Source: Escherichia coli O127:H6 str. E2348/69 (GTDB lineage: Bacteria; Pseudomonadota; Gammaproteobacteria; Enterobacterales; Enterobacteriaceae). Taken from it: a stretch of DNA of 64,000 bases. The translations under genes and the position numbers were made by a program. The first letter of the stretch is position 1, and every line of letters starts with the position of its first letter. Under the pieces are notes generated by a model that searched no databases, had not been told where the DNA came from, and was given only the letters and a program-made list of their open reading frames with translations. Below, piece by piece: positions 27,025 to 27,470 of this stretch. The stretch lies in assembly GCF_000026545.1 (NCBI RefSeq), contig NC_011601.1; one strand, 5' to 3'.

Positions 27025-27092
27025 CCTTAAAGAAGCGTACTTTGAAGTGCTCACACAGATTGTCTGATGAAAATGAGCAGTAAAACCTCTAC

Positions 27093-27169
27093 AGGCTTGT
27101 AGCTCAGGTGGTTAGAGCGCACCCCTGATAAGGGTGAGGTCGGTGGTTCAAGTCCACTCAGGCCTACCA
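27093..27169 (+). tRNA. ile: tRNA-Ile (anticodon GAT)
   Basis: AGGCTTGTAGCTCAGGTGGTTAGAGCGCACCCCTGATAAGGGTGAGGTCGGTGGTTCAAGTCCACTCAGGCCTACCA; anticodon loop CTGATAA. Confidence 0.96.
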
Positions 27170-27211
27170 AATTTGCACCGCAAATTTGAAGAGGTTTTAA
27201 CTACATGTTAT

Positions 27212-27287
27212 GGGGCTATAGCTCAGCTGGGAGAGCGCCTGCTTTGCACGCAGGAGGTCTGCGGTTCGATCCCGCATAGCTCCACCA
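27212..27287 (+). tRNA. ala: tRNA-Ala (anticodon TGC)
   Basis: GGGGCTATAGCTCAGCTGGGAGAGCGCCTGCTTTGCACGCAGGAGGTCTGCGGTTCGATCCCGCATAGCTCCACCA; G3:U70 identity pair present. Confidence 0.96.
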
Positions 27288-27470
27288 TCTCTGTAGTGAT
27301 TAAATAAAAAATACTTCAGAGTGTACCTGCAAAGGTTCACTGCGAAGTTTTGCTCTTTAAAAATCTGGATCAAGCTGAAAATTGAAACACTGAACAACGA
27401 GAGTTGTTCGTGAGTCTCTCAAATTTTCGCAACACGATGATGGATCGCAAGAAACATCTTCGGGTTGTGA

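Follow-up and report, generated by a model that had tools for sequence, protein, structure and literature searches.

How did an rRNA operon in the position of rrnE come to carry the spacer of another operon, and was the chromosome rearranged when it did? The question arises in a 64,000-nt stretch of the chromosome of Escherichia coli O127:H6 strain E2348/69 (the window), where an operon between purH and yjaA has tRNA-Ile and tRNA-Ala genes between 16S and 23S. A sequence-only reading of the window pointed this out, took rrnE of K-12 to have tRNA-Glu there, and offered two explanations: that rrn operons had undergone gene conversion or recombination with one another, or that they had mediated a chromosomal rearrangement. 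On K-12 it was correct: in MG1655 the rrnE spacer is 354 nt long and holds gltV (tRNA-Glu), and it is not the Ile-Ala spacer that the reading had named as the finding that would undo its case.

The operon between purH and yjaA

The window matches E. coli E2348/69 (NZ_CP059840.2) at 100%. The operon and the genes that bound it are laid out as follows.

23277..24866, minus strand: purH, a 529-aa open reading frame annotated as purH in NZ_CP059840.2; upstream flank, marking the rrnE position as in K-12
24867..25482, plus strand: rrnE promoter and leader, native to the locus and outside the exchange
25483..27024, plus strand: 16S rRNA gene (Rfam SSU_rRNA_bacteria, 1577 bits)
27025..27470, plus strand: 16S-23S spacer of the Ile-Ala type, 446 nt, filling exactly the gap between the Rfam 16S and 23S matches
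27093..27169, plus strand: tRNA-Ile(GAT) (ARAGORN; Rfam tRNA, 66.3 bits; RefSeq annotation)
27212..27287, plus strand: tRNA-Ala(TGC) (ARAGORN; Rfam tRNA, 65.6 bits; RefSeq annotation)
27471..30374, plus strand: 23S rRNA gene (Rfam LSU_rRNA_bacteria, 2868 bits)
30475..30590, plus strand: 5S rRNA gene (Rfam 5S_rRNA, 93 bits)
30667..31050, plus strand: yjaA, annotated; downstream flank, marking the rrnE position

The identity of this operon has to be read separately from its position and from its content. By position it is rrnE. It has purD and purH on the minus strand upstream and yjaA, yjaB, metA and aceB downstream, the same set that surrounds rrnE in K-12, and the purH and yjaA flanks are joined to the operon by locus-specific sequence on both the promoter/leader and the terminator side. 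The last 400 nt of the promoter and leader are identical to the K-12 rrnE upstream sequence at 394 of 400 positions, against only 328 matches to the K-12 rrnD upstream sequence, and the 150 nt 3' of the 5S gene agree with K-12 rrnE downstream at 147 of 150 positions and match rrnD poorly.

By content the operon belongs to the Ile-Ala class, with tRNA-Ile(GAU) and then tRNA-Ala(UGC) between 16S and 23S, and gltV, the K-12-type content of rrnE, is missing. Of 437 positions compared with the K-12 rrnD spacer, 431 agree. The K-12 rrnE spacer is of the unrelated Glu type, and what it has in common with the window spacer is confined to ~45 nt at the 5' end and ~120 nt at the 3' end. ARAGORN, Rfam, the RefSeq annotation and the flanks thus all bear out what had been read from the sequence, an Ile-Ala spacer in the operon at purH/yjaA.

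Rfam also reports a match to StyR-44 ("Salmonella Typhi npcRNA 44") at 27355-27463, the last ~110 nt of the spacer before the 23S gene. This is ordinary 23S leader and no locus-specific RNA gene, since the segment is common to all rrn operons of both spacer types. Elsewhere in the window Rfam finds four RNA elements.

13535-13635, minus strand: TPP riboswitch, presumably preceding thiC, by the K-12 map
35874-35944, plus strand: naRNA4, between the aceA and aceK open reading frames
57961-58157, minus strand: lysine riboswitch, which we take to precede lysC, by the K-12 map
60052-60200, minus strand: STnc430

A balanced exchange between rrnD and rrnE

The seven rrn operons of E2348/69 were identified through their flanking genes. 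Besides the operon in the window they are the following.

rrnA, hemG/mobB: Ile-Ala spacer, as in K-12
rrnB, murI/murB: Glu spacer, as in K-12
rrnC, yieP/hdfR: Glu spacer, as in K-12
rrnD, yrdA/yhdZ: Glu spacer (K-12 rrnD has ileU and alaU)
rrnG, clpB/kgtP: Glu spacer, as in K-12
rrnH, gmhB/dkgB: Ile-Ala spacer, as in K-12

The types at rrnD and rrnE are reversed relative to K-12, with opposite changes in the same genome, Glu to Ile-Ala at rrnE and Ile-Ala to Glu at rrnD, and the totals are those of K-12, 3 Ile-Ala and 4 Glu. Because rrnD has a Glu spacer, this is not a lone change at rrnE; E2348/69 carries a balanced rrnD/rrnE spacer swap with no net rearrangement. The flanks of both operons are orthologous to the same-named K-12 loci (392-394 of 400 positions upstream, 147-148 of 150 downstream), and the spacers match the other K-12 locus (431/437 for rrnE and 350/354 for rrnD). 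A single non-reciprocal gene conversion would add one to the count of the donor type; here rrnD has changed in the opposite direction and the 3:4 count is intact.

Flanks orthologous to K-12 rrnE around a spacer of the K-12 rrnD type speak for recombination of one rrn operon with another, in line with the first of the two explanations proposed from the sequence. The other, an rrn-mediated rearrangement, fails for the genome as it stands, since a K-12-type flank pair is found on both sides at all seven operons with no hybrid among them, and in a search with a hybrid purH...yhdZ operon E2348/69 reaches a coverage of only 78%. As history it may still be right: an inversion followed by re-inversion in this lineage is possible, if unproven, and plausible because genomes with natural rrnD-rrnE inversions exist.

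To find the limits of the exchanged tract, the seven operons were aligned. The three Ile-Ala spacers (rrnE, rrnA and rrnH) are mutually identical, as are the four Glu spacers, and so are the 23S genes, 7 of 7. Variation in 16S is confined to ten sites, all between window positions 25558 and 25938, and the rrnE copy departs from others at only four of these (25561, 25572, 25575 and 25619), where it sides with rrnD and rrnG against rrnA and rrnH. The alignment gives two bounds.

27045..27443, plus strand: minimum exchanged tract, set by the outermost sites that separate the types (27045, 27432 and 27443)
25620..30598, plus strand: maximum exchanged tract, closed on the left by 25619 and on the right by 30599/30600, sites where rrnE departs from rrnA and rrnH, its possible donors

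The boundaries cannot be brought closer together because donor and recipient are identical between 25619 and 30599, and the donor and the crossover points cannot be identified from the E2348/69 genome. Nor can two crossovers be distinguished there from two gene conversions, since homogenization has left all the 23S genes and most of the 16S genes identical. Two other observations were made on these operons: rrnD alone has a distinct 23S-5S spacer, and fragments of an IS110-family transposase lie just downstream of rrnG (11421-12492 of the rrnG locus extract).

Spacer positions among complete E. coli genomes

The arrangement was surveyed in 5,426 complete E. coli genomes by means of chimeric queries, each tying a locus-specific flank to a spacer-specific segment, such that only the linked arrangement attains 80% coverage. 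An Ile-Ala spacer is linked to purH in 127 of the 5,426 genomes and a Glu spacer to yrdA in 84, counts that clonal sampling inflates and that are descriptive only. The polarity within E. coli is clear, with Glu at rrnE the majority state (97.7%). Both changes occur together in at least 23 genomes, taken as the overlap of the best 60 matches for each query, where independence predicts about 2; these include E2348/69 (three assemblies), RM14723, MP1, Trh52, A25 and TUM14697.

By local flank distances, the strains in the swapped state sit on diverse flank haplotypes and form no cluster apart from canonical strains; the flanks of TUM14697, for one, are nearest to those of WP3-S18-ESBL-08, a strain in the canonical state. 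As a test for a single origin of the swap these distances were of little use: strains of like spacer state did not group together, and recombination in the region is too heavy for a tree. Among the B2 strains the upstream rrnE flank (zraR-purD-purH, ~21400-25180) is 1.5-3.6% divergent and the downstream flank (yjaA-yjaB-metA, 30600-32400) only 0.2-1%, a pattern that suggests the purH side to be a recombination mosaic among these strains. In MP1, yjaA is frameshifted (9864-10246 of the MP1 locus extract), and in M8 it is absent (10433-10551 of the M8 locus extract).

Natural inversions between rrnD and rrnE were sought with a contiguous 10.7-kb hybrid query in which purD-purH-rrn is joined to thrV-rrfF-yhdZ-yhdY, and 19 of the 5,426 genomes have one. 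Glu is beside purH in 15 of them and Ile-Ala in four (CFSAN067215, Rb-23, ST648 and A34), so crossovers fall on either side of the spacer. Rb-23 (NZ_AP025677.1) has both reciprocal hybrids, yrdA-16S-Glu-23S-5S-yjaA and purH-16S-IleAla-23S-5S-thrV-rrfF-yhdZ. TUM14697 (NZ_CP128888.1) is in the swapped state with native flanks, and its flanking DNA differs from that of Rb-23 by 1 mismatch in ~17 kb; both are human isolates from Japan. These two differ by a single inversion with its crossover in 23S, and so a one-step transition between the swapped and the inverted state is seen here within a clone. All four states are therefore found in nature: canonical, the two inversion types, and swapped.

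Movement of spacers is not confined to rrnD and rrnE. Glu is found at rrnA or rrnH in 708 of the 5,426 genomes, and the best 40 of the 708 are all hemG-linked, i.e., at rrnA. Ile-Ala is at rrnB in ~12% of genomes and at rrnC in a few, figures that rest on 8 of 59 evenly spaced entries. AR_0086 (NZ_CP032201.1) has Glu at rrnA and Ile-Ala at rrnB. Nissle 1917 has Ile-Ala at both rrnE and rrnD and was for that reason a candidate for an unbalanced intermediate; its rrnA (NZ_CP058217.1, 4873423-4878433) carries Glu, which rules this out and makes it an rrnA/rrnE swap. The rrnA/rrnB and rrnA/rrnE swaps join operons that lie in direct orientation, and inversion therefore cannot be the route to them. 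The mouse isolate M8 (NZ_CP019953.1) has Glu at rrnB, rrnC, rrnD and rrnE, and either its rrnG carries Ile-Ala or the genome has just two Ile-Ala spacers.

Ile-Ala spacers were counted with a probe made from the non-tRNA parts of that spacer only. It has 16,306 matches spread over 5,407 genomes, a mean of 3.02, and in an even sample of 60 genomes the number is exactly 3 in 58. An apparent ~17% of genomes with four Ile-Ala spacers, obtained with a 281-nt probe that contained the tRNAs and found 4-5 places per genome, was an artefact of tRNA similarity. A K-12 Glu-spacer probe was uninformative for typing, having matched all seven operons through sequence common to both types. Roughly 15% of genomes thus have permuted spacer positions while the Ile-Ala count stays at three.

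Routes to the exchange and what it means

That the swap in E2348/69 was caused by homologous recombination between rrn operons we regard as practically certain. For its path, we give about an even chance to two successive inversions. The operons rrnD and rrnE are inverted relative to each other and lie on either side of oriC, and RecA-type recombination would act in the 16S and 23S genes, near-identical between operons, on either side of each spacer. A first reciprocal crossover on one side of the spacer would invert the ~0.84-Mb segment containing oriC, as in K-12 W3110; a second, on the opposite side, would turn the segment back, restoring gene order and leaving the spacers exchanged. The homology available measures ~1.7 kb to the 16S side of the spacer and 3.2 kb to the 23S side, lengths from which one would expect spacers to be swapped in ~45% of re-inversions.

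This route is favored because the swap with native flanks involves exactly rrnD and rrnE, because the changes at the two loci co-occur far beyond the expectation from independence, because natural inversions show both junction types, because TUM14697 and Rb-23 are one inversion apart, and because an rrnD-rrnE inversion is established in W3110 (PMC5179076). Against it stand the balanced swaps between operons in direct orientation, of the Nissle 1917 and AR_0086 kind, which mean that a process without inversion gives the same outcome. A linked-marker test comparing TUM14697 with WP3-S18-ESBL-08 was also weighed against it. There, 16S position 137 travels with the spacer, and the rrnD-specific 16S markers 210 and 264 of WP3-S18-ESBL-08 are not found in TUM14697 rrnE, a mixed result that falls short of the clean reciprocal pattern expected. 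For E2348/69 itself, passage of the lineage through an inversion is something that we infer.

The same arrangement would result from two separate non-reciprocal conversions, in which an Ile-Ala operon (rrnA, rrnH or rrnD) overwrote rrnE and a Glu operon overwrote rrnD, the second change being kept because it restored the 3:4 dosage of tRNA genes. Spacer conversion has been shown to occur between rrn operons and its rate measured (Harvey and Hill 1990, as cited in PMC8022953), a comparable rrnE-rrnB conversion is documented in K-12 ER2796 (PMC4444293), and either rrnA or rrnH could have been the donor, their spacers being identical to that of rrnE. With seven operons split 3:4, a single conversion would not be lethal in E. 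coli, and so compensation is a real alternative. Selected compensation would also account for an Ile-Ala count that is nearly invariant while positions vary, and for the direct-repeat swaps rrnA/rrnE in Nissle and rrnA/rrnB in AR_0086, which need no inversion. The difficulty is that an unbalanced intermediate has to be passed through, and among the 60 sampled genomes there is essentially none, 58 having exactly three Ile-Ala spacers. The choice of rrnD rather than rrnA or rrnH as the site of compensation, one chance in three, is left unexplained, and no use is made of the crossovers between rrnD and rrnE that are directly evident to either side of the spacer. We think two conversions a quite possible history and on balance a somewhat doubtful one.

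Two other explanations would place the exchange outside the lineage or outside biology. If the swap had been imported, DNA spanning rrnE, and separately rrnD, would have come from E. coli already in the swapped state. The mosaic zraR-purD-purH flank of the B2 strains suggests that recombination there is frequent, and swapped-state strains do not group by flank haplotype; yet import takes two independent events at loci ~0.84 Mb apart or one of implausible length, both rrnE flanks of E2348/69 are what is usual in the phylogroup B2 strains of the comparison and lie near those of the canonical-state strains among them, and the origin of the swap is merely shifted to another strain. We therefore consider import improbable. 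As for an assembly artefact, with spacers placed in the wrong operons during repeat assembly, there is precedent among complete genomes. The ATCC 25922 assemblies disagree, NZ_CP009072.1 linking Glu to yrdA and NZ_CP158443.1 not; the 2002 record of CFT073 (NC_004431.1) differs from three newer ones, NZ_CP058222.1 among them; and the K-12 derivative GM4792 (NZ_CP011343.2) shows Glu at rrnD. Conflicts of this sort within one strain point to misassembly of rrn operons in some of the older "complete" genomes, and the authors of socru report rrn misassemblies in 6.76% of the complete RefSeq genomes of ESKAPE pathogens that they analysed (PMC7478630). Nonetheless, three separate E2348/69 or O127:H6 assemblies (NZ_CP059840.2, NZ_LT827011.1 and NZ_LT903847.1) agree at rrnE and rrnD and match the 7.3-kb rrnE stretch at 100%, upwards of 60 other genomes align unbroken with this rrnE structure, and from different laboratories there are at least 20 more genomes with the same pair of changes. 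An artefact is accordingly the least credible of these readings, and hardly to be entertained for E2348/69.

Exchanges of this kind have been met before. Lehner, Harvey and Hill are said to have found in 1984 that the rrnB and rrnD spacer types are interchanged between Salmonella Typhimurium and E. coli K-12. By that account Glu and Ile-Ala spacers trade places in a balanced way between rrnD and an operon of the other replichore and gene order is conserved, as in E2348/69; the case differs in lying between genera and in involving rrnB where E2348/69 involves rrnE.

Exchange of a whole spacer between E. coli rrn operons has been shown experimentally (Harvey and Hill 1990, Genetics 125:683, as cited in PMC8022953). 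As that work is described there, the whole spacer with its tRNAs was replaced by way of the flanking rRNA genes and the operon kept its own flanks, as in E2348/69; the experimental events were selected non-reciprocal conversions in engineered K-12, whereas the change in E2348/69 is natural, fixed in lineages and balanced at rrnD. The inversion IN(rrnD-rrnE)1 of K-12 W3110 (Hill and Harnish 1981, as described in PMC5179076) likewise has rrnD and rrnE as its endpoints and draws on the same substrate for homologous recombination. W3110 and the natural inversion isolates, however, have hybrid flanks (purH...yhdZ and yrdA...yjaA). In E2348/69 the flanks of both operons are native, which makes it at most the product of an inversion later reversed.

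In Treponema pallidum, the spacer tRNA genes of two rrn operons have undergone reciprocal translocation, for which the authors favor a reciprocal double crossover over conversion, since both tRNAs must be retained (PMC3755535). There, as in E. coli, two spacer types exchange places between strains in a phylogenetically scattered way and the tRNA set is kept, but T. pallidum has two operons with one tRNA each and E. coli has seven in a 3:4 split. In the literature searched we found no description of the rrn spacer arrangement of E2348/69 or of B2 strains, or of the survey numbers given here. The arrangement in E2348/69 is plainly visible in public annotation, and the kind of event is known and fairly common.

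The consequences for E2348/69 itself are small. The tRNA-Ile/Ala pair is now behind the rrnE promoters and ~0.2 Mb nearer oriC, with one copy of tRNA-Glu farther away, and the shift in gene dosage should be only a few percent at fast growth. The wider point is that in lineages other than K-12 the spacer content of an operon cannot be read off from its K-12 name. This matters for spacer-based (ITS) typing, for checks on long-read assemblies, and for programs that classify genome structure from rrn flanks, which are blind to spacer swaps. TUM14697 and Rb-23, in turn, make a natural and nearly isogenic pair in which the cost of inverting the origin region could be measured.

What the survey raises is the question of why the 3:4 count is conserved while positions move. 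Tentatively, and with more doubt than confidence, we suggest that a fixed count with permuted positions may reflect either exchange that is intrinsically reciprocal, by double crossovers of which rrnD/rrnE would be the form taken by recurrent flipping of the oriC segment, or a dosage of spacer tRNAs held constant by strong purifying selection. If the reciprocal reading is true, swapped lineages such as E2348/69 would bear a lasting scar of cycles of inversion and re-inversion around the replication origin.
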